This document shows, in pieces, positions 44,548 through 54,211 of a DNA stretch of 64,000 nucleotides (position 1 is the first letter of the stretch; every line of letters begins with the position of its first letter). Below the pieces are notes generated by a model. The model was not told the origin of the DNA and made no database searches. It was given only the letters and a program-made list of their open reading frames with translations. A program made the translations under genes and the position numbers. The stretch covers positions 1,585-65,584 of the forward strand of contig JBFWJG010000005.1 in assembly GCA_050253335.1 (NCBI GenBank), written 5' to 3'. Source of the DNA: Deferribacterales bacterium. Its GTDB lineage: Bacteria; Chrysiogenota; Deferribacteres; Deferribacterales; Geovibrionaceae.

Positions 44548-44558
44548 CATTTTACGGT

Positions 44559-45018
44559 AAAAATTTACCATCCATGGAAATTTTTACACACGCTCGCGGT
44601 CTGCAAAGCAGACCTTCGCTACGCACGGCGTGCTCCCTTCCATGGCAGCATGTTTATAAGCTGCTTGCTGCTCTGGTTACGCTTGCGTTCCTCGCGTTCG
44701 CTGCGGTACGCGCTCCACGGGCAACATCCATGTGCCTGTTATTCGGCTTCGCTCCGCACGGCGCAGTATCTGTCTTTCCGCTCCAAAAACTACATCCTGT
44801 GTTTTTTCCGCACACGCTCGCGCCGAAGCAAGTTCGGCTTCGCTCCGCACGACGCAGTTCCGTCCATGGAACTGTTTATGTCATTCTGAGCGTCAGCGAA
44901 GAATCTCTTATTTATAAATAGTTCAGAAACGGCACATCCTGTCCGTTTCCTCACACGCTCGCGCCGAAGCAAGTTCGGCTTCGCTTCGCACGGCGCAGTT
45001 CCATCCATGGAACTGTTT
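44559..45018 (-). repeat. Modular palindromic repeat cluster A (7 GGA-loop hairpins)
   Basis: Units at 44559-44650, 44785-44877 and 44926-45018, a partial unit at 44741-44767, a diverged unit at 44651-44740 and a 28-nt module at 44880-44907; 44811-44877 and 44952-45018 differ at 3 of 67 positions. Confidence 0.92.
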
Positions 45019-45049
45019 GCGTCCAAAGGAAAGAAGAAGGAATTAATAA

Positions 45050-45700
45050 TTACCCCTCAACCAGCCCCTTTTCCGTGAGGAACATTTTGCGTGCGCCGAC
45101 TTTCTCGATGAAATCAGTATCGTGAGAAACTATCAGCATTGTTTTGTCGATTCCGCGGAGAATTTCAGCAAGCTTATCTGCGCTTTTTTCATCCAGCGCC
45201 GCTGAGGGCTCGTCGAGAAGAAGTATTTCCGGCTTCATGACAAGGACAGAAGCGAGAGCCACCATTTTCTTTTCCCCTCCTGAAAGGTGAAGAGTTATGC
45301 GGTCACGCAGATGAACTATATGCAGTTCACTAAGCATGGCTTCTGCCTTTGCGGCGGCGTCAGCCTGCTTCATGCCTTCATTGAGAAGACCGAAGGCAAC
45401 CTCTTCTATCACTGTCGGGGCTATTATCTGATCATCCGGATCCTGAAAAAGGAAGCCTATCTTTCGCCTTGCATCCGCGAAATCCTTTTCTGTTTCAAGT
45501 TTTTTATGGTGAATCTCGAAATGGCCGCCGCATGTTCCGCCCAAGCCCACTATCGCCTTGAGAAGCGTGGTCTTTCCAGCGCCGTTAGGCCCGAGGACTG
45601 CTATTTTATCCTTATGGGTAAGATTTATTGAAACGTTTTCAAAGAGAATTCTGTCTGCTGTGCGGCAAGATATGTTTTTCAGAGAAAGTGTACAGCTCAT
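45050..45700 (-). CDS. cbiO: ECF/ABC transporter ATPase (CbiO/NikO)
   Basis: GPNGAGKTT, FQDPDDQ, LSGGEKK, LLDEP. Confidence 0.9.
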   Translation of the reverse strand: MSCTLSLKNISCRTADRILFENVSINLTHKDKIAVLGPNGAGKTTLLKAIVGLGGTCGGHFEIHHKKLETEKDFADARRKIGFLFQDPDDQIIAPTVIEEVAFGLLNEGMKQADAAAKAEAMLSELHIVHLRDRITLHLSGGEKKMVALASVLVMKPEILLLDEPSAALDEKSADKLAEILRGIDKTMLIVSHDTDFIEKVGARKMFLTEKGLVEG

Positions 45701-46353
45701 AAAACCTGCCTGATAATGAGCGCTGTCTGGATTATGAGCACAGCCGCCAGAAAGCCGTCAGCTATGCACAGAGGGCGGGCGTTAAACGGATATAGTTTGC
45801 CCTTAAATCCCCTAAGCTGCATTGCGTGATGCAGAGATTTTGCCTTTTCCATGCTTTTTACGAACAGCATACCCACCAGATACCCGAATGTTTTGTAAGT
45901 GAACAGGTTAGTTTTCGGATTAAAGCACCGTATCCTGAGTGAGTCACGCATTTTTTTATATTCCGAGCCCAAAATCTCAATGTATTTTATAACAAAGAAT
46001 AAAAGTACCGTAAACCTGTCAGGGAATTTCAGCCCGCTGAACCCGTAATAAATGCCCATTGCTCCGTGAGGGGCGAAAAGAAGAAGATTAGCGCTGAGGA
46101 TTAGGTTTGCCCTCAGAAAAATAAGCAGAGCGTATGATGTGTCACGATGAAAAATGAGAACTGTGGCACATATGAAAAGTATCACAAGGTTAAGCCTAAG
46201 CAGACGGAGAAAGGGTCTGAAAGCGGATTTTAACGACACGGCCGCCAAAAACAGAGCAAAAACAGCGTCATATGCATTTATTTCTGTCCTGAACGCTATC
46301 AGCAGTGAGTAAATGACTGCGGCTGCAATTGAAGCAGCAGGCGAAAATTTCAT
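45697..46353 (-). CDS. cbiQ: ECF transporter T component (CbiQ/NikQ)
   Basis: LRIRCF and MQLRGF Arg motifs; hydrophobic. Confidence 0.88.
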   Translation of the reverse strand: MKFSPAASIAAAVIYSLLIAFRTEINAYDAVFALFLAAVSLKSAFRPFLRLLRLNLVILFICATVLIFHRDTSYALLIFLRANLILSANLLLFAPHGAMGIYYGFSGLKFPDRFTVLLFFVIKYIEILGSEYKKMRDSLRIRCFNPKTNLFTYKTFGYLVGMLFVKSMEKAKSLHHAMQLRGFKGKLYPFNARPLCIADGFLAAVLIIQTALIIRQVL

Positions 46354-46868
46354 TTTTTCCTGAAAAGTAAGAAAAGTCCGAAGATTCCGAAGAGGTAGCC
46401 TATCCCGGCTATTATCTTATCAGTGTCTGAACGCCCCTTGTCTATGGCGGCCTGAATCTCAAGAGTCTGCCTGGAGAGTTCCTGACGGATTACGGAACGC
46501 AGAGAATCTGCATCAGCGGCTGTCAGTGCTTCTGCGCCAGAGGATGCTTCAGCGGTTTCAGAGGGCGCTTCAGTCGCAACTTCCGTTTTGGCGAAGTGCC
46601 CCATGCCTGCATCAACATTAACGAAGAATGATGACGGCAGCTCACCGCTAAGCACTGCTTCCCCGCCTTCGCTGAGTTTTCCGCTGAACAGAACATGGCC
46701 GTCCGCAGATGTGACGGTATACCCGCAGCTTTTGCAGTAGGTTCCGTCCGCAAAGTAGGAGGTGATGCTCAGGGTTCCCTCCTCATTGAAGGCAAGGACG
46801 TTCAGCTTGTGAGCGTAAACAGGTGAAAGTATCGAAAAAAAGAGTAAAAAAGTAAAAAAACTTTTCAT
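46350..46868 (-). CDS. Accessory exported/membrane component of the Ni/Co ECF transporter
   Basis: Signal peptide then AHKLNV, DAGMGH, C-terminal TM GIGYLFGIFGL. Confidence 0.75.
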   Translation of the reverse strand: MKSFFTFLLFFSILSPVYAHKLNVLAFNEEGTLSITSYFADGTYCKSCGYTVTSADGHVLFSGKLSEGGEAVLSGELPSSFFVNVDAGMGHFAKTEVATEAPSETAEASSGAEALTAADADSLRSVIRQELSRQTLEIQAAIDKGRSDTDKIIAGIGYLFGIFGLFLLFRKK

Positions 46869-46875
46869 TTTAGCC

Positions 46876-47472
46876 TCATTTGTCAAGCAATGAAGGATAA
46901 ACCTTCAGGATGAATCTTAATATAAAAACTGTGGCTGTCCCTTCAATCAGCATGACGGGTAAATGCGCCAGAAAAATAGCCTGTGCCGCCTGAAACAGCT
47001 TGTCACCGCTGAGAAAAAGCATGAATGCAACCAGAAGGCTTGAAAGAGCCACGGGTACGAAGCCTGTAAGAAAAAACAGAAACGTTCTGAGGATGCCATC
47101 AGCCGATGCAGCTTTTCTGAAAATGAAAAAAGCGCATACAGCGGGGAACGCAGCGTCAAATGTATTTACTCCCAGTGTCGTTATGCCGCCGAACTGAAAG
47201 AGAAGCCCCTGAAGCAGAAGCGCCATGAATATTGCGGGAAAGGCCGCAAAACCGAGCACAGCGCCTACCAGTCCGTTCAGAAGCAGATGAACACTTGAGG
47301 GACCTAAGGGCACGTGTATGAAGGAACCGACAAAAAACAGGCTGGACATCAGCGCTGTTTTCGTCAGCAGTTCATCCTTCATTTCGCGAAAGCCGTAAAC
47401 GAGAAATCCAATCGAGGCGGCCGCCCCTGCGCCAAGCACAGGAGCGGAAAGAACGCCTTCGGAAATGTGCAT
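46876..47472 (-). CDS. cbiM: ECF S component CbiM/NikM
   Basis: N-terminal MHISEG metal-binding motif, SVHLLLNG, LLFQFGGITTLG. Confidence 0.92.
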   Translation of the reverse strand: MHISEGVLSAPVLGAGAAASIGFLVYGFREMKDELLTKTALMSSLFFVGSFIHVPLGPSSVHLLLNGLVGAVLGFAAFPAIFMALLLQGLLFQFGGITTLGVNTFDAAFPAVCAFFIFRKAASADGILRTFLFFLTGFVPVALSSLLVAFMLFLSGDKLFQAAQAIFLAHLPVMLIEGTATVFILRFILKVYPSLLDK

Positions 47473-47473
47473 A

Positions 47474-48229
47474 CTAGTCTGCTCCGTAAGTTTTCACCCA
47501 GAAAACAGCGCCAAGCTCAACGGGATATTCTTTGCCTTCGTGTTTGACTGTAACATCGTCTTCAATGAGAGCGGCGAATGCCCACCAGCCTGCAAAGGGC
47601 ATGGAATATGAAAAAACACCGTTGGCGTCTGCCTTGATAACCTGAGTTATGTGTGCGTCTGTGGGGTGTTTAATCTTACTGCCTTTGTTATAAAATTCAA
47701 CCTCAATCTCGGCATTGGGGACTGCTTTGCCTTTATAGATAACCTTGCCAGTGAAGCTGTTTCCTTTCCAGAGGCCGTAGGGGCGTGTGAGAGGCACAAT
47801 TTCCGCTTTAAGGCCGACAGGCGTGTCCCAGCCTTCTTCCATGCCGAAAGCGTTGACTACAGTCTTTGTGATGTGCTGGATGAATACGCCTTCGGCGGGT
47901 TCAAAGTAGTAGTCAGGAGTCACTGTGAAAATATAGTCGCCGGGCTTGGTGAAAGAGTATTTGAAGCCCCATGTTGATTTACCCTGAACCGCAGTCTTTG
48001 TTATTGATTTCATAAGGTCGGTTTTTTTGCCGTCGAAATAGACTGAGACATCTTTCGGCTTAACCATTTCCATGATAGGACCCTGCTCAAACGGATGGGT
48101 GAACTCCATTCCGAAGGAAGCTGTTCTGGAAGCAGGTGTTACAACATCCGCAGAGGGTATAAGGGTCTGAAAATGCGCGAAAGCCGCTGACGCGCAGAAT
48201 ACGAGCAAAACAATAATAAATTTCTTCAT
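47474..48229 (-). CDS. DUF4198 periplasmic metal-transport accessory protein
   Basis: Signal peptide, mature N-terminus HFQ, THPFE, EIVPLTRP. Confidence 0.85.
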   Translation of the reverse strand: MKKFIIVLLVFCASAAFAHFQTLIPSADVVTPASRTASFGMEFTHPFEQGPIMEMVKPKDVSVYFDGKKTDLMKSITKTAVQGKSTWGFKYSFTKPGDYIFTVTPDYYFEPAEGVFIQHITKTVVNAFGMEEGWDTPVGLKAEIVPLTRPYGLWKGNSFTGKVIYKGKAVPNAEIEVEFYNKGSKIKHPTDAHITQVIKADANGVFSYSMPFAGWWAFAALIEDDVTVKHEGKEYPVELGAVFWVKTYGAD

Positions 48230-48239
48230 ACTGATCTCC

Positions 48240-48299
48240 GTGTTACGAATTTAGATCACGGTGTTATCATGGTGGCATAAAAAAGTCAATACGTGTTAT
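48240..48299 (-). promoter_or_regulatory. Promoter of the ECF operon with NikR-like half-sites
   Basis: GTGTTAY at 48240, 48261 and 48293; TTGACT-N17-TAACAC (48289-48261) with a TG extension. Confidence 0.6.
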
Positions 48300-48362
48300 T
48301 GTGACGGAATATGATTTTTGAGCTGCTGCTGCGGATTGGCTGTATTTTAAGTTAAGGATGAG

Positions 48363-48506
48363 ATTCTGAACGTAGTGAAGAATCTGAGACCGCCGTAAAA
48401 TATATGCTGTGTACAGTTCCACGGAGGGAACTGCGTCGTGCGGAGCGAAGGGCGGTTTATCCGCCCGCGAGCGTGTATTCAAAATTTCCATGGACGGGAG
48501 AATTTC
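48363..48506 (+). repeat. Modular palindromic repeat cluster B
   Basis: 23-nt module at 48363-48385 plus one full unit; 48413-48497 matches 53049-53133 at 82 of 85 positions. Confidence 0.92.
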
Positions 48507-48521
48507 GATTATATAAAGCAA

Positions 48522-48552
48522 AAAGGCTTGCTCTTTAGAGGAGCAAGCCTTT
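48522..48552 (-). terminator. Terminator after tRNA-fMet
   Basis: 12-bp stem AAAGGCTTGCTC/GAGCAAGCCTTT. Confidence 0.8.
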
Positions 48553-48565
48553 AAACTGTTCGAAA

Positions 48566-48639
<74 letters not shown>

Positions 48640-48651
48640 CCAAGGATTGCT

Positions 48652-48680
48652 AACATACACGCCGGATCTTTTGTTGTCAA
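48652..48680 (-). promoter_or_regulatory. Promoter of tRNA-fMet
   Basis: TTGACA-N17-TATGTT with a TG extension. Confidence 0.75.
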
Positions 48681-48807
48681 GAATAAATATGAAATTTTTT
48701 TTAAATCTGTCGGTGTTGAAAAATAACAAAGACTATCATAGGATTAATTATGGCTTGCCGAAGGGTTTTGACGGCATGTTCCTTACGAATTTAAAGGGAG
48801 AATTTTC

Positions 48808-49656
48808 ATGAATACTGTCTATATATCCGCTGTCCTTTTTGCCGCTGCCGCTGCCGCATCGTATATTCTGCCCCAGCTTCCCGGCGGGAACAACCATGTC
48901 ATCCTTACGCTGCTTGTGTGTCTGACAGCTTTTTCGGCCGGATTCGGCTGGTGGCGTGCTAAAAAGAACCGCATGAGGGAAGAGGAACTCAGCGGAATGA
49001 TTCTGCGTGAGGAGAAGCGCACCGTTGGCAGGTTCCTGATCCATGAGTGGCGTGGGCTTATCCAGAATATCGGCATTCAGGCGGAGATGATGGAGCGTGC
49101 CGAGAACATGGAGGGCGTTAGGGTAAACTGCGGCGTTATAAGGAAAATTCTTCGTGAAGAGGCTGAGAAGACAGACAGAGCCGAGTTTTATTTCCGCAAG
49201 GACGGCACAAGTATGAAGAAATCCTCAAAAGCTGTCCAGAAAGCCGTTTCGGATGCTGAGATTTTTCACGGGAAAAAAAGAGTAAAAGTTGTGTACAATA
49301 CAGCAAAAAAAGACCTTAAATCAGACTTTGACAAGCTTCATCCGTGCGTATTCTTCGCGCTGATGAACACTTTTTCCGCTGTTAAGGATAAGAACGGAAC
49401 CGTAACCCTCAGCGTGGCGGAAAGGGTTCTTGGATTTACCGAGTTTCTTGAGATATCTGTTGAGGGGGGCGAAATGCTTTTTGACAAGGAGACGGAAGAT
49501 CTCTTTCACCCATTCAATGTATCCCCTGATAAGTTCAGAGGATATTTCGGCCTTGCGACAGTGAGGAGGCTCGCCTCCGATATGGGCGGGTTTGCAGAAG
49601 TCGAACGGGGTATAGACAAAACATGCGTATATATCGTTATTCCGGTGGCTAAATGA
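48808..49656 (+). CDS. Membrane-anchored, degenerate histidine-kinase-like protein
   Basis: Two N-terminal TM segments; H-box-like LIHEWRG; F box LFHPF; altered N, G1 and G2 boxes. Confidence 0.7.
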   Translation: MNTVYISAVLFAAAAAASYILPQLPGGNNHVILTLLVCLTAFSAGFGWWRAKKNRMREEELSGMILREEKRTVGRFLIHEWRGLIQNIGIQAEMMERAENMEGVRVNCGVIRKILREEAEKTDRAEFYFRKDGTSMKKSSKAVQKAVSDAEIFHGKKRVKVVYNTAKKDLKSDFDKLHPCVFFALMNTFSAVKDKNGTVTLSVAERVLGFTEFLEISVEGGEMLFDKETEDLFHPFNVSPDKFRGYFGLATVRRLASDMGGFAEVERGIDKTCVYIVIPVAK

Positions 49657-52493
49657 CGGAAAAATTTGAAAAAACAGTTCAGAGGATTAACCATCCGGAC
49701 AGAAATGATCTCGCCGCAGTATTCAGGCACTCCGTCTTTATTGCCGACTGGCTTGAGAAAAATCCAGAATATGCGGCAAAGGCTCTTGATTCGGCAAAAA
49801 CCGAGCGGAATGTGGACTCAATTCTCAATGACATTCTCACGCAGGATTTCCACGAACTGGATGAAGAGGCTCTGCTGAGGCATCTGCGACTTGTTAAAAT
49901 GACCGAGTACACCGCAATTGCCCTGAAAGATCTGGTTTACGGGGCGGATGTGAAGGATGTCACTGCGCACATATCCTCATTCGCCTCCGCTTCGCTTGAA
50001 GCGGCCTATAAGTACGCTTATTTCAAGGTAAGCCGGGAACTGGGTAGGCCGCAGGACGCGGAAGGCTCAAGGGTCGGCATGACTGTGATAGGGCTTGGCA
50101 AGCTGGGCGGGTGGGAGCTGAATTTCAGCTCTGACATAGACATAATGTATGTTTACGGCACGGAGATGGGCAGAACCGATGACAGCGGGGAGAAGGCTTC
50201 CGTGGAGAACCATGTTTTCTTTACCCGCGTTGCCGAGAAAGTGACCCACTACATAGGCACAAGAACGGCGGACGGCATCGTTTTTCGTGTGGATCTCCGC
50301 CTCCGCCCCGACGGAGACAGAGGCGCGATAGTTCTTCCTGTCAGAAGCTGTGAGATATATTACGAATCATACGGGCAGGGCTGGGAGAGGATGATGCTTC
50401 TCAAGGCGAGACCCGTAGCGGGGGACAAACGCACCGGAGCGGAATTTCTCCGCGCGGTTAGGCCGTTTGTCTTCAGGCGCAGTCTGGATTATAAGCTTCT
50501 GGACGAACTGAAAAGCATAAAACAGAAGATAGACCGCCGAGAAGAGATAAGGGGGAACAGGAATGTCAAACTGGGCTACGGCGGCATAAGGGAGATAGAG
50601 TTTGTTGTTCAGGCTTTTCAGATTCTCTATTATCCGAAATTCCCTGAGATTTACCACCCCTCGACTCTGGACGGAATAGACCTGCTTGTGAAATTCGGCC
50701 AGCTTGAGGCGCAGGCCGGGGAGAGACTGAAGGACGAATACCGCTTTCTGCGCAGGCTGGAGCACATGGCGCAGATTGAGAACGAGAAGCAGACCCACGT
50801 GATCCCCGAGGACAGCCCCGTCTTTCCGCTTTATCTTGAGCGGTGCGGTTTTGACTGTGCTGAAAAGTTTAATGAAAAATTCACCGAAACCACAAGGTTC
50901 GTCCATAAGGTTTTCTCCGGGATCTTCAAAGAGCACGAAGCTCCGGACGCTTCCTCCCTTATCTTTGACAAAGAGCTTGAACAGGAGGAAGTGGCAAGGA
51001 TAATACAGGACAAAGGGATCAGGGACGCCGTCAGGTGTTCGTCTATAATAAAAGACATACTTCAGGGGCGGAAAAACACCATACGCACGCCGGAGGAGAT
51101 CCGTATTATCGAGATGGTGCTCACCCGTGTTCTGGAGCATCTGCCGGAGAGGACGGATCCGGCGGGAACCCTGCTGAATTTTGAAAAGCTTCTCTCGCAC
51201 CCGACCACTGTTTATCTGCTTCAGGACATCATAACCGGAGCACCTGCTATTCTGGACAAGCTGGAGAATATTTTCTCCTTCAGCCGCTATATGTCCGACC
51301 AGATAATAAGCGACCGCACGCTTCTGGATTATATATACGATCCCAAAGACCCCGACTTCAAAAGCGGCTTTATCCGCCTTGACTACCATGAGCGCACAAA
51401 CAAATACACGGGCGATACGGAATACATAATGGAGATAGCCCGCCAGCGGCACAAAGCTTATATTTTCAACGCAGGCTATGCCTTCCTCAACGGAACCCTG
51501 AACGTGATCCACACCATGAAGGCGCTTACGGAACTGGCCAAGGGCACAATACAGTTCGCTGTGGACGCCGTGTATGATCAGGTTGCCGCCAGATACGGAA
51601 GGCCAATGACCGCAGACGGCAGGATATGCGATTTCCTCGTTGTGGGAATGGGTAAGCTCGGGAGCTATGAGATGAGCTTCGGCTCCGATCTGGACATTAT
51701 TTTCCTTTACGAGGAGAACGGGCGGACAGACGGCAAAAACTCTATAACCAACATGGAGTTTTTCACCAAAGTGCTCCAGAGGGCAATATCCTTTCTCAGC
51801 TCATATACCACAAACGGCATTCTTTATAAGATAGATACGAGACTCCGCCCCAGCGGTTCCAGCGGAACTTTGGTGACAAGCCTTCCCGCCTTCAGGGAGT
51901 ACCAGCTCAAAGAGGCGATGACATGGGAAAAGCAGGCACTGGCACGTTCAAGCGTGGTCAATGCGGATTCGCCTCTCAGCGGCAAATTTGATGAAATTAA
52001 GACCGAGTGCCTTTTCAGTTCACCTTTGGGAAAAGAAAGGATAAAAGATATAAAGGAAATGCGCGCAAGGATAGAGACGGAAAAAGGCTCGCCCCCTGAA
52101 AAGAATGATATAAAGGCGGGCTATGGAGGAATGCTGGACATAGAGTTTGCGGTGCAGATGCTCCAGCTTCTGACCGGACACGAGGATGAGAATGTCCGCA
52201 ATCCCAACACCCATGACGTGATGGTTCATCTAAAGGACAAGGGTTTTATAAAGGACAGGGACTATTACGCCCTGCACGACAGCTATCATTTCTACAGAAC
52301 ACTGGAAAATGTTCTGAGGATCTATGAGAATACATCAACATCAAAGCTTCCTTCCAATGAGGAGGTTCTGGCCAAGGCGGGGATGTTCTTCTGTTTTGAG
52401 AAAAATCCCGCGGAGTGTTTAAGCGAAAAATACGCATGGGTGCGCAAAAGCGTCCGTGCGGCCTACAACAGAGTTTTTGAGAGGTACATGTAA
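49653..52493 (+). CDS. glnE: Glutamine synthetase adenylyltransferase/deadenylylase
   Basis: Two NT domains: GLGKLGGWELNFSSDIDI, DLRLRPDG, KLGYGGIREIEF; GMGKLGSYEMSFGSDLD, DTRLRPSG. Confidence 0.95.
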   Translation: MTEKFEKTVQRINHPDRNDLAAVFRHSVFIADWLEKNPEYAAKALDSAKTERNVDSILNDILTQDFHELDEEALLRHLRLVKMTEYTAIALKDLVYGADVKDVTAHISSFASASLEAAYKYAYFKVSRELGRPQDAEGSRVGMTVIGLGKLGGWELNFSSDIDIMYVYGTEMGRTDDSGEKASVENHVFFTRVAEKVTHYIGTRTADGIVFRVDLRLRPDGDRGAIVLPVRSCEIYYESYGQGWERMMLLKARPVAGDKRTGAEFLRAVRPFVFRRSLDYKLLDELKSIKQKIDRREEIRGNRNVKLGYGGIREIEFVVQAFQILYYPKFPEIYHPSTLDGIDLLVKFGQLEAQAGERLKDEYRFLRRLEHMAQIENEKQTHVIPEDSPVFPLYLERCGFDCAEKFNEKFTETTRFVHKVFSGIFKEHEAPDASSLIFDKELEQEEVARIIQDKGIRDAVRCSSIIKDILQGRKNTIRTPEEIRIIEMVLTRVLEHLPERTDPAGTLLNFEKLLSHPTTVYLLQDIITGAPAILDKLENIFSFSRYMSDQIISDRTLLDYIYDPKDPDFKSGFIRLDYHERTNKYTGDTEYIMEIARQRHKAYIFNAGYAFLNGTLNVIHTMKALTELAKGTIQFAVDAVYDQVAARYGRPMTADGRICDFLVVGMGKLGSYEMSFGSDLDIIFLYEENGRTDGKNSITNMEFFTKVLQRAISFLSSYTTNGILYKIDTRLRPSGSSGTLVTSLPAFREYQLKEAMTWEKQALARSSVVNADSPLSGKFDEIKTECLFSSPLGKERIKDIKEMRARIETEKGSPPEKNDIKAGYGGMLDIEFAVQMLQLLTGHEDENVRNPNTHDVMVHLKDKGFIKDRDYYALHDSYHFYRTLENVLRIYENTSTSKLPSNEEVLAKAGMFFCFEKNPAECLSEKYAWVRKSVRAAYNRVFERYM

Positions 52494-52494
52494 A

Positions 52495-53025
52495 GTGCTG
52501 AAGTTTTTGGCGGTTATAGACTATGAAACCTTCGGGGAGGACTATCTGAAGGTTGCAGAAAGGGTTGCGGACAGGGCGGAGATGATCTGGTTCCGCGCGA
52601 AGAACCTTACTGCGGCGGAAATCTATCAGAAAGCGGTGAAGATGCGGGAGCTTCTGCCGGATGCTTTTCTTATTTTATCTGAAAGACCGGATATCGCCGC
52701 CGCTGCCGGATTTGACGGTGTTCAGCTCAATGAGCGCACCCTCCCGCCGGAAACGGTGGAGCAGGTTTTTCCCGAGCTTATCACAGGATATTCAGCTCAT
52801 TCTCTGGAAGAGATTGTGAAAATTCAGGCGGATTTTTTCACCCTCAGCCCGATTTTCATGACCGACAAGCCTTACGAGGTCAACCCTCTGGGGGCGGTGG
52901 ATGTAACGGATACGGAGAAAAAGGTTTATGCTCTGGGCGGCGTTACGGCAGGCTCACTTCCGCTTCTGAGAGGGAAGGGCTACTACGGCTACGCCGGAAT
53001 CGGCATAATCAAAGGGATGATATAA
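52495..53025 (+). CDS. Thiamine-phosphate synthase-like (ThiE/TenI) protein
   Basis: FDGVQL, GYSAHS, LSPIF, YALGGV; GTG start just after glnE. Confidence 0.82.
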   Translation: MLKFLAVIDYETFGEDYLKVAERVADRAEMIWFRAKNLTAAEIYQKAVKMRELLPDAFLILSERPDIAAAAGFDGVQLNERTLPPETVEQVFPELITGYSAHSLEEIVKIQADFFTLSPIFMTDKPYEVNPLGAVDVTDTEKKVYALGGVTAGSLPLLRGKGYYGYAGIGIIKGMI

Positions 53026-53046
53026 CAGTTTTCAAACGATGATAAT

Positions 53047-53434
53047 AAACAGTTCCATGGAGGGAACTGCGCCGTGCGCAGCGAAGGGCGGTTTATCCGC
53101 CCGCGAGCGTGTATTCAAAATTTCCATGGACGGCAAATTTTGAATTATTAAGAAAAGACACTGCGCCGTGCGGAGCGAAGCCGCATTCATTGCGGCGCGA
53201 GCGTGTACATCAAACCGACAGGATGTGCGGTTTGATGTTGTTAAATGAGAGACTCTTCGCTTTGCTCAGAGTGACATTTCGGCTGGTCATTCTGAACGCA
53301 GTGAAGAATCTCAAACCGCTTTAATGTATATGATTCCAAACAGTTCCACGGAAGGAACTGCGCCGTGCGGAGCGAAGCCGCATTCATTGCGGCGCGAGCG
53401 TGTACATCAAACCGACAGGATGTGCGGTTTGATG
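53047..53434 (+). repeat. Modular palindromic repeat cluster C (5 GGA-loop hairpins)
   Basis: Units at 53047-53143, 53160-53238 and 53338-53434; 53161-53237 is identical to 53358-53434 over 77 nt; inverted 27-nt doublet at 53249-53275 and 53286-53312. Confidence 0.93.
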
Positions 53435-53437
53435 CCA

Positions 53438-54211
53438 TTAATAGAAGTGATTCACCGGCCCGTGGCCTCTGCCGATATTCATTGAATCCGCATGGCGTAT
53501 CGCCTCGGTGATATACCGCTTTGCCTCGAATGCCGCCTCTGTTATGTCATAATCCTTTGCAAGCCAAGCCGCCACAGCCGAGGCGAATGTGCACCCTGTT
53601 CCGTGGGTGTTGCGTGTTGCGACCCTCGGAGCATCCAGCCAGATAAACTCATTGCCGTCATACAGAAGATCACGGCTGTGCGAGCCTGAACCGTGCCCCC
53701 CTTTGAGGATGACATTTGCACATCCGAGTGCCCGCAGTTCCTTTGCCGCCTCCTCAAAATTATCTATGCTGTGCCCCAGAAGAACCTCCGCCTCCGGAAT
53801 ATTCGGCGTGATCACAAGCGCCAGCGGGATAAGGTTCTTCTTCACGGTTTCCACCGCCTCCTGACGGAGAAGAGGGCTTCCCCCCTTGGCCACCATAACC
53901 GGATCGACAACAAGCTTGCGCACACCGTATTTCTTCATGGCATCCGCGACAGTGAGAACGATTTCAGGGGAGGAGAGCATCCCTGTTTTCACGGCGTCCG
54001 CCCCCATATCCGCAAAAATCGCGTCTATCTGGGAATTTATTATGCTTAAAGGAAGGTCAAAAACATCCGTAACGCCCAGAGTGTTCTGCGCGGTGATGGC
54101 GGTGACTGCGCTCATGCCGAAAACACCGTTTGCGCTGAACGACTTAATATCCGCCTGAATGCCTGCGCCGCCGCCTGAATCGCTCCCTGCTATGGTTAGT
54201 GCCTTTTTCAT
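53438..54211 (-). CDS. thiD: Hydroxymethylpyrimidine/phosphomethylpyrimidine kinase
   Basis: ALTIAGSDSGGGAGIQAD, VDPVMV, ITPNIPEA, NTHGTGCT. Confidence 0.96.
   Translation of the reverse strand: MKKALTIAGSDSGGGAGIQADIKSFSANGVFGMSAVTAITAQNTLGVTDVFDLPLSIINSQIDAIFADMGADAVKTGMLSSPEIVLTVADAMKKYGVRKLVVDPVMVAKGGSPLLRQEAVETVKKNLIPLALVITPNIPEAEVLLGHSIDNFEEAAKELRALGCANVILKGGHGSGSHSRDLLYDGNEFIWLDAPRVATRNTHGTGCTFASAVAAWLAKDYDITEAAFEAKRYITEAIRHADSMNIGRGHGPVNHFY

Follow-up and report, generated by a model that had tools for sequence, protein, structure and literature searches.

Few post-transcriptional regulators are as widespread as CsrA, whose SELEX consensus reads RUACARGGAUGU. [quoted passage not shown] To our knowledge, RNA antagonists of CsrA have been demonstrated only in Gammaproteobacteria, and elsewhere only FliW and flagellin mRNA are known to act. 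A structured motif of similar layout, TD-2, reportedly came from the Breaker/Weinberg screens, in Treponema denticola, as a motif of unknown function; we know of no report of a replication-polar orientation for it. The TwoAYGGAY motif (RF01731; Weinberg 2010, PMC2864571) consists of two hairpins, each ending in an AYGGAY terminal loop, and has tandem-GA motifs in a stem (PMC4333381), and CsrA sequestration by this motif was predicted, not shown, by Gardner and Eldai in 2015 (PMC4333381). The Deferribacterales are listed among the FliW-type taxa lacking BarA-UvrY (PMC4682653). For one FliW-type CsrA, 276 of 328 bound sites have AAGGA in the loop of a hairpin, and sites between genes in polycistrons are among them (PMC4894983).

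The window, i.e. the whole analysed stretch of 64,000 nucleotides, contains three clusters of a repeat unit of about 100 nt, in which three hairpins and two cores follow in the order HP1, core1, HP2, core2, HP3 (Table 1). An earlier note on this DNA had counted 14 GGA-loop hairpins; the recount gave the same total, and re-reading of the sequences also bore out the strands, positions and cores (core1, CGCCGTGCGNAGCGAAG; core2, CGCGAGCGTGT) that it described. In cluster A these hairpins are HP1 and HP3 of units 1, 2 and 4, together with the single GGA hairpin of the partial unit, which is followed by “module X”, present in 13 copies in the genome. Clusters A and C lie between convergent ORFs, as the note had placed them, and cluster B is antisense to both of its neighbours.

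Table 1. Repeat units of the three clusters and adjacent features in the window
Feature	Position	Strand	Description
Cluster A	44559-45018	-	Seven GGA-loop hairpins
TD-2 model match	44552-44649		Cluster A unit 4; full-length, 22.3 bits
Cluster A, unit 4	44556-44655	-	HP1 loop ATGGAA; HP2 GTCTGCTTTGCAGAC; HP3 AAAATTTCC-ATGGAT-GGTAAATTTT
Cluster A, partial unit	44660-44776	-	Linker AAGACAGATACTG instead of HP1; core1 44747-44763; hairpin GGCAC-ATGGATGT-TGCC; module X (…GGAACGCAAGCGTAACCAGAGCAGCAA)
Cluster A, unit 2	44783-44877	-	HP1 loop ATGGAC; core1; HP2 CCGAACTTGCTTCGG; core2; HP3 loop ACAGGATGT
Small palindromic repeat	44880-44908	.	GTCATTCTGAGCG-TCA-GCGAAGAATCTC
Cluster A, unit 1	44920-45018	-	HP1 44996-45015, loop ATGGAT; core1 44979-44995; HP2 44964-44978; core2 44953-44963; HP3 44926-44949, loop ACAGGATGT
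ORF beside cluster B	47474-48229	-	
Cluster B	48413-48506	+	Two GGA-loop hairpins
Cluster B, single unit	48413-48512	+	HP1 loop ACGGAG; HP3 loop ATGGAC
tRNA beside cluster B	48566-48639	-	
ORF before cluster C	52456-53025	+	Stop codon 22 nt before cluster C unit 1
Cluster C	53047-53434	+	Five GGA-loop hairpins
Cluster C, unit 1	53047-53148	+	HP1 loop ATGGAG; HP3 loop ATGGAC
Cluster C, unit 2	53155-53244	+	Linker AAGACACTG in place of HP1; HP3 loop ACAGGATGT
Cluster C, unit 3	53337-53441	+	HP1 loop ACGGAA; HP3 loop ACAGGATGT
ORF after cluster C	53438-54211	-	257 aa, convergent; stop codon abutted by unit 3

The recurrence of the unit is far beyond chance. The source genome (G000, 2.58 Mb) holds 137 full core1-HP2-core2 units, with 119 occurrences of core1 at no more than one mismatch and 128 exact occurrences of core2, and arrays reach four to five units, that is, 8–10 GGA hairpins in 400–500 nt. 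Each of three congeners carries at least 100 units. Diverged copies that keep the GGA loops and AGCGAA…GAGCG are found in other Deferribacterales genera and in another family, the copy number differing tenfold or more between genera; scored matches per genome number about 1–20 in the sister genera and reach 33 in one genome of another family. GGA is present in 104 of 117 HP1 loops (89%) and in 101 of 105 HP3 loops (96%), and in none of the 137 HP2 loops; the genome-wide copy number and loop conservation that the earlier note had proposed to check are both high.

Folded as a single strand, the unit has HP1 first and a small hairpin next, then a helix with tandem G.A on which the variable HP2 forms the cap, and finally a long A/T-rich HP3. 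The HP1 loop follows the pattern C-A-N-G-G-A-N-G (loops A[U/C/A]GGAN), and the HP3 loop is ACAGGAUGU or CAUGGANG, also given as AUGGAN or ACAGGAUGU. Three elements are additional to the earlier description: (i) a 3-bp mini-hairpin, CGC-CGU-GCG; (ii) a 2-bp GC/GC helix around tandem G.A / A.G, adjoining HP2; (iii) the tail TRTTAAR, which forms the 3' end of the unit. The 2-bp helix covaries and flanks the GCGAAG/CGCGAGC segment, which appears to be held by tandem G.A pairing. A kink-turn reading of this segment was discarded, since its loop geometry is unlike that of a standard K-turn, and only the tandem G.A within a helix was kept. Nor was a stable d(GCGAAGC) mini-hairpin accepted as the conserved fold: the covariation favours the long-range GC/GC helix, and the closing C is found in only about half of the units. 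Across 53 diverse units the paired cells amount to 94.3%, against 68.5% in shuffles and 31–49% with slid partners, and the cells changed on both sides number 373, against 107 in shuffles. Compensatory changes occur in 23 of the 27 stem pairs, and covariation is strong in all helices. The stems are almost purely Watson-Crick, with no real G-U excess (G-U 23 vs A-C 14), a pattern indicative of very young stems or of palindromes at the DNA level; as a pointer to the RNA strand, this comparison is uninformative.

The repeat family is a very abundant, newly found variant within a known motif class. Its units align end to end with the TD-2 model (Rfam RF03162, clan CL00124) at 22–45 bits and fall short of its 48.7-bit gathering threshold (best 33.8 in G000 and 45.1 in G007, of a sister genus). 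Both are multi-copy and intergenic, and both have three hairpins within some 98 nt, the outer two bearing AYGGAY loops, a layout with which the consensus of 53 units agrees. In the TD-2 model, HP1 has the loop AUGGAU and is separated by a linker from a central hairpin, which a long A/U-rich HP3 with the loop ACGGAU follows. The Deferribacterales repeat differs from TD-2 in its linker and cores, CGCCGUGCGNAGCGAAG and CGCGAGCGUGU being specific to this lineage, in the phylum, and in its far greater copy number of at least 100 per genome. The features of TwoAYGGAY, i.e. two AYGGAY loops and a tandem G.A in the stem (here a putative pairing), are found as well; in contrast to that motif, the two GGA hairpins of the unit are separated by a third one, and the unit also has conserved cores. 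The TwoAYGGAY model (cut-off 43 bits) gave a sole match in nine genomes, of 22.4 bits (E = 0.67), on a hairpin outside the units, and none at E ≤10 in clusters A and C. The earlier idea of a CsrA sponge in a lineage with no known CsrB-type RNA is therefore not without precedent, given the sub-threshold TD-2 matches and the 2015 prediction for TwoAYGGAY.

The CsrA reading draws on the following observations. The fliW-csrA pair that the earlier note proposed to look for is present in the source genome, csrA lying immediately downstream of fliW and a flgK/L-like gene, and the RNA-binding segment SVHRKEI of the encoded protein aligns with E. coli SVHREEI. Both flagellin 5' UTRs of this genome carry a C-AAGGAA-G hairpin (CANGGANG type) and an AAGGAGG Shine-Dalgarno (SD) sequence, and the variable positions of the unit loops are the N positions of CANGGANG. 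The gene csrA is found in 36 of the 41 genomes of the order, and its co-occurrence with the repeat is uninformative because it is nearly universal there. In each copy the tips of two hairpins agree with the docking site of CsrA, and judged from sequence a CsrA-sponge role is plausible, CsrA docking appearing to be the best mechanism for the family; the role is nevertheless unproven, because the orientation of the units follows replication and not gene direction. Core conservation exceeds what CsrA binding would need, which counts against the CsrA reading, as does the nature of the genes downstream of the units, which show no flagellar or motility enrichment and are ordinary housekeeping genes. 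What stands of the sponge proposal is the presence of csrA, the GGA kept in HP1 and HP3, the same hairpin in the flagellin leaders and the FliW-type background of the order; the replication-led orientation, the lack of a G-U excess and the lack of a conserved promoter weigh on the other side.

The preferred account, held tentatively and at rather less than an even chance as a whole, is that of an old, Deferribacterales-wide interspersed structured element, with the architecture of TD-2, that would dock CsrA and would not represent CsrB-like genes. Units located in operon spacers and 3' UTRs, with the GGA strand as the mRNA sense of the adjacent gene at about three quarters of the loci, would be co-transcribed with the adjacent genes at sense loci. 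Each unit may dock a CsrA dimer at HP1 and HP3, or at HP3 and a Shine-Dalgarno sequence further downstream. The transcriptome would thereby gain about 200 high-affinity CsrA sites, which could titrate CsrA and locally tune the neighbouring genes. Spread and orientation are set apart from this as DNA-level processes: preferentially, the GGA strand is the leading-strand sequence, copies multiply by tandem duplication, and recombination swaps modules between loci. Many copies do fill 125–200-nt intergenic regions inside operons, some directly past stop codons, and every one of the eight copies whose intergenic region measures no more than 200 nt is sense. About 15 units end within approximately 35 nt of a start codon; in such units the HP3 GGA lies about 23–29 nt upstream of the SD, as measured in three copies. 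Genes preceded by a unit 13–30 nt before their start include rplJ, dnaK, dnaG and gatA.

The orientation of the units tracks replication direction, not gene direction or transcription. Leading loci outnumber lagging ones by 55 to 17 in G000 and by 40 to 14 in G003, so that at about 75% of the loci the GGA strand is the leading-strand sequence, that is, the lagging-strand template. In convergent intergenic regions 28 loci are leading and 10 lagging, and beside lagging-strand genes (both genomes together) 4 of 14 loci are sense and 10 antisense to those genes. Units are over-represented in convergent intergenic regions and scarce in divergent ones (3 of 66, against a 25% background). One strand is common to all copies of any intergenic region of the genome, which extends what the earlier note saw within single clusters, and inverted doublets are absent among the genome-wide units. 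Orthologous loci differ in the presence and copy number of units, module swapping between loci was seen, cluster C coincides with a synteny breakpoint, and contig ends often lie inside units (28 “edge” units).

Such behaviour is what would be expected of a REP/BIME-like selfish or structural DNA element, forming ssDNA hairpins on the lagging-strand template, with loops and cores read by a mobilising or DNA-binding protein and with a coincidental or secondary likeness to CsrA sites. This explanation is a serious possibility, if not a probable one. The replication polarity in two genomes, independent of gene direction, argues for it, together with the perfect Watson-Crick stems (G-U/A-C ratio near 1), the convergent enrichment and divergent depletion, the tandem arrays, the locus-level copy differences, module swaps and breakpoint, and the edge units; IS200/IS605-type elements likewise target the lagging-strand template (PMC6006769). 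The repeat also resembles REP/BIME (REPIN)-RAYT systems and the BOX elements of Streptococcus pneumoniae in being abundant, modular, intergenic, hairpin-forming and often 3' of genes, and in its tandem clusters and rearrangement hotspots. It differs from REP in the absence of a RAYT, of a GTAG-footed single palindrome and of inverted doublets, and its stems vary while its loops are conserved, the reverse of REP. Instead of the inverted 20–40-nt single palindromes of a REPIN doublet, each region holds a 100-nt three-hairpin module on one strand.

No agent that would mobilise such an element emerged from the searches. The Y1 transposase/RAYT domain (PF01797) is absent from all high-copy genomes (G000–G003, G004 and G028), and the same profile search did detect the domain in control genomes; RAYT/IS200 mobilisation was rejected on this ground. 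Reverse transcriptase (PF00078, RVT_1) is absent from G000, G002, G003, G004 and G028, and retro-mobilisation or an RT-partnered ncRNA was likewise dropped. At the unit ends no target-site duplication was found, only A(A) on the 5' side and TRTTAAR on the 3' side being conserved. The “mobile, self-spreading” character attributed to the family in the earlier note thus has neither a Y1 transposase/RAYT nor a reverse transcriptase behind it in the searched genomes. Besides these absences and that of inverted doublets, two properties speak against a purely DNA-level element: the fixed and free loop positions reproduce CANGGANG exactly, with the same hairpin in the native flagellin leader, and the repeat persists at the level of the order with a conserved non-canonical helix.

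An RNA element of REP type that acts independently of CsrA, through 3'-exonuclease protection of the upstream mRNA, attenuation of read-through, or SD-like ribosome standby sites, is unlikely. It would account for the placement directly past stop codons and in tight operon junctions, for the predicted hairpin stability of -35 to -50 kcal/mol per unit, for the short T-rich tails after HP3 and, on the opposite strand, after HP1, and for the SD-like GGAG or AGGA in the loops. A stabiliser, however, requires neither conserved loops nor a conserved tandem-G.A helix, and transcription does not govern the orientation.

Stand-alone sponge sRNA genes of the CsrB/RsmZ type, each with its own promoter and terminator, are very improbable. 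The likeness lies in the repeated hairpins, which in CsrB, CsrC and RsmX/Y/Z show CAGGAUG or ANGGA loops, two or more per CsrA dimer, and the density of GGA hairpins in the arrays is like that of CsrB; a cluster like B, antisense or “orphan”, could moreover be made only from a promoter of its own. Nevertheless, no conserved promoter was found upstream of HP1, where only one or two A residues are conserved, and promoter-like matches upstream of units are at chance level (12 vs 8.9 expected), so that the units are not stand-alone CsrB-like genes and this version of the earlier proposal was abandoned. Units that fill operon spacers argue in the same direction. [quoted passage not shown] The known sRNAs are single-gene products, whereas the Deferribacterales element is a promoterless dispersed repeat of a FliW-type lineage.

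A replication-linked ssDNA signal on the lagging-strand template, for instance a site for priming or for primosome assembly, or some other polar signal of the chromosome, is the least probable explanation: the strand bias and a three-hairpin layout resembling that of G4-type single-strand initiation signals, known from ssDNA phages and plasmids, would suit it, but a bias of 75% is modest, genera differ at least tenfold in copy number, and the Chi/KOPS-like words of the cores (AGCGAAG, GCGAGCG and similar) are unskewed outside units, unlike the polar word of this genome, GGGCAGGG (122 vs 43).

It is conceivable, albeit doubtful, that TD-2, TwoAYGGAY and the Deferribacterales family belong to a single class of CsrA-docking repeats, dispersed, amplifiable and shared across phyla, which would serve as the missing RNA arm of Csr control in FliW-type lineages without CsrB-like sRNAs, act as hundreds of two-site clamps in operon spacers and 3' UTRs, and spread in fixed polarity by a replication-coupled, transposase-independent process. 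Bulk transcription would then titrate CsrA, and new insertions would wire genes into the CsrA regulon. A 2.6-Mb genome that contains some 200 consensus CsrA hairpins would make the question of RNA antagonists directly testable, provided that a member of the genus or of a sister genus is culturable. Independently of what the loops bind, TD-2 and TwoAYGGAY, both orphan motifs of Rfam, gain a relative that is large, deeply sampled and clear in its covariation, and a replication-polar orientation without any known single-strand transposase is a new fact on such elements.

The small palindromic repeat interleaved with the units of cluster A is unrelated to them; more copies of it are located at 48363-48385, 53249-53275 and 53287-53313.

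Searches of the whole genome (2.58 Mb, 48.9% G+C, 142 contigs) showed that the repeats of the window belong to a real, abundant, structured and old element. Its unit of about 100 nt consists of a first hairpin (HP1), core1 (CGCCGTGCGNAGCGAAG), a second hairpin (HP2), core2 (CGCGAGCGTGT) and a third hairpin (HP3), with a 3' tail TRTTAAR as part of it. There are 119 matches to core1 at no more than one mismatch, 128 exact matches to core2 and 137 full core1-HP2-core2 units, in 127 of which HP2 measures exactly 15 nt. Head-to-tail arrays carry a short linker, AAGACAnnACTG, in place of HP1. No target-site duplication was found at the units. The repeat breaks the assembly, since 28 units fall at contig ends. 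The three clusters of the window stand as the earlier note had described them, repeat finding aligning them mutually in direct and inverted orientation, and its 14 GGA-loop hairpins were counted again.

Location of the repeat clusters and of associated features (window, contig C5:1585-65584)
Feature	Location	Strand	Description
Cluster A	window 44559-45018	-	7 GGA-loop hairpins; between convergent ORFs
Cluster B	window 48413-48506	+	2 GGA-loop hairpins; between minus-strand ORF and minus-strand tRNA
Cluster C	window 53047-53434	+	5 GGA-loop hairpins; between convergent ORFs
Module X (…CGTGGAGCGCGTACCGCAGCGAACGCGAGGAACGCAAGCGTAACCAGAGCAGCAAGCAGC)	window 44660-44746	-	preceded by core1 and hairpin GGCAC-ATGGATGT-TGCC
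Palindrome (G)TCATTCTGAGCG-N-GCGAAGAATCTC	window 44880-44908, 48363-48385, 53249-53275, 53287-53313		second small repeat
tRNA	window 48566-48639	-	
tRNA terminator	window 48519-48553		strong hairpin, between tRNA and cluster B
Sigma-70-like match	window 53017-53046	+	weak, ATGATA-18-GATAAT (9/12); ends 1 base before cluster C
Solo HP3-type hairpin	C7:50632-50764	-	GTAAAAATTGCC-ATGGAT-GGCAAATTTTTAC, directly 3' of stop codon; second hairpin next
csrA	C12:10982-11215		directly follows fliW and a flgK/L-like gene (1400 aa)
Flagellin genes	C10:8301, C10:19673	-	leader hairpin with AAGGAA loop

The structure was derived with RNAalifold from an alignment of 53 diverse units (A1), giving 27 pairs in five helices with compensatory changes at 23 of them. 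Under this fixed structure, 94.3% of cells are paired, against 68.5% in shuffled alignments and 31-49% with slid partners; both-sided changes number 373 cells against 107 in shuffles. Beside HP1, HP2 and HP3 there is an extra mini-hairpin (CGC-CGU-GCG) and, adjoining HP2, a 2-bp helix GC/GC around GA/GA, lying within the words GCGAAG and CGCGAGC, which covaries (AGTGAAG with CGAACG, AATGAAG with CGAATG). The stems are almost wholly Watson-Crick, G-U (23) being not clearly more frequent than A-C (14), a pattern compatible with palindromy at the DNA level or with young, recombined stems.

Of the well-formed HP1 loops, 104 of 117 contain GGA, as do 101 of 105 HP3 loops, but none of the 137 HP2 loops; full units alone supply 205 GGA-loop hairpins of the CsrA-consensus type. 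The consensus is C-A-[U/C/A]-G-G-A-N-G for HP1, and ACAGGA[U/C/A]G[U/C] or CAUGGANG for HP3. The CsrA/RsmE consensus is CANGGANG, and the variable loop positions coincide with its N positions; the HP3 loop includes the CsrB repeat, CAGGAUG. Hairpin loops bearing GGA are documented to bind CsrA homologues (PMC4894983, PMC4333381). The earlier note's link to CsrA finds csrA itself in the genome, directly after fliW; as the gene occurs in 36 of 41 relatives, its co-occurrence is uninformative. Both flagellin leader hairpins (GCGC-AAGGAA-GCGC or GAC-AAGGAA-GTC) are followed about 40 nt downstream by the SD AAGGAGGAUG, and hairpin and SD are predicted to be the CsrA sites BS1 and BS2 in the canonical two-site arrangement. 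This presumed native CsrA target has an HP1-type loop. A published list of lineages presumed to govern CsrA through FliW, not through BarA-UvrY-driven sRNAs, includes Deferribacteres (PMC4682653).

No match to the units reached an Rfam gathering score. The TD-2 motif (RF03162, clan CL00124) aligned end to end with the last unit of cluster A at 22.3 bits under permissive thresholds, its consensus sharing the layout over 98 nt: HP1 (AuGGAu), central hairpin and HP3 (AcGgAU). Its best scores lie below the cut-off of 48.7 bits, at 33.8 in this genome and 45.1 in a sister genus. The units gave no match to the TwoAYGGAY motif (RF01731), and the CsrB model scored 6 bits. The unit is most fittingly classed with TD-2 and TwoAYGGAY, as a new variant in high copy number. 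The solo HP3-type hairpin on contig C7 matches both motifs alike, marginally, and isolated modules therefore occur outside full units. TwoAYGGAY, also with tandem-GA motifs, has been predicted to sequester CsrA (Gardner and Eldai, PMC4333381).

An exact-pattern scan of species representatives matched only the MAG Deferribacterales bacterium Deferri_01 (G001). A covariance model (R1) detected at least 100 copies in every one of the genus's four genomes; diverged copies number 1-20 in sister genera, and a genome from another family has at least 33. In the diverged copies core1 is not conserved in its 5' half; HP1 and HP3 retain CAGGANG, CAUGGAUG or ACAGGAUGU, and AGCGAA…GAGCG flanking HP2 is kept. 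Even at order level, therefore, the loops show no drift.

The key new result on the family is that its orientation is set by replication. In co-directional intergenic regions 31 units are sense and 11 antisense; units are enriched in convergent regions (21/66) and rare in divergent ones (3/66 against a background of 25%). The leading strand was assigned by local GC skew and validated by the KOPS-like word GGGCAGGG (122 leading against 43 lagging); in the complete genome G003, replichores were taken from coordinates and skew for 54 fetched loci. The GGA strand is leading:lagging at 55:17 loci here and 40:14 in G003, and at 15:4 and 13:6 within convergent regions. Sense:antisense ratios are 26:4 and 19:6 beside leading-strand genes, 3:5 and 1:5 beside lagging-strand genes. 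Replication direction alone (~75%) reproduces every locus class, whereas sense-strand preference does not. The GGA strand therefore tends to be the template of lagging-strand synthesis, a strand transiently single-stranded at the fork. Such polarity is known for single-strand transposition of the IS200/IS605 type (PMC6006769), although the high-copy genomes here lack a Y1 transposase. The octamers GGGCAGGG, GGACAGGG and AGGGCAGG, the most strand-skewed of the genome when oriented by GC skew, are candidate KOPS-like words for orienting FtsK in this lineage.

As mechanism we tentatively prefer that the units act as co-transcribed CsrA-docking modules. At some three quarters of loci the GGA strand is the sense strand of an adjacent gene, and the eight copies within intergenic regions no longer than 200 nt are all sense. 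Some 15 units have their end 13-35 nt ahead of a start codon; in three that were measured, 23-29 nt separate the HP3 GGA from the SD downstream, a distance that one CsrA dimer can bridge. The match of fixed and free loop positions to the CsrA consensus, with a putative native flagellin site of the same type, also favours this reading. Only slightly less probable is a repeat with replication polarity that acts at the DNA level, its loops serving another protein, a reading to which the tracking of replication at ~75% and the near-pure Watson-Crick pairing point. CsrA docking and a DNA-level role are compatible: orientation and spread have the look of DNA biology, loop conservation that of CsrA biology. 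The strict reading of the clusters as CsrB-like sponge genes is not supported.

The family was also held to be mobile and self-spreading; evidence for any particular transposition mechanism was not found, with no Y1 transposase in any high-copy genome and no reverse transcriptase in those checked. At the orthologous locus of cluster A, each of the four species has 1-4 units, on the same strand throughout, with differing HP1, HP2 and HP3 variants swapped in. Cluster C is a synteny breakpoint, its units accompanying a 257-aa gene in two species and missing in a third; the genes flanking it (window 53025-53438) lie 23-44 kb apart in three congeners (L046-L051), which marks a rearrangement. Arrays carry along flanking spacer sequence, indicating tandem duplication. 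Growth thus proceeds by duplication and recombination.

Sigma-70-like matches such as the one before cluster C are at chance level across the region. The small palindrome has about 80 genome copies, 28 of them within 250 nt of a unit; similar words are found in many unrelated phyla. Module X has 13 copies genome-wide and is preserved in a congener at the orthologous locus (L052).
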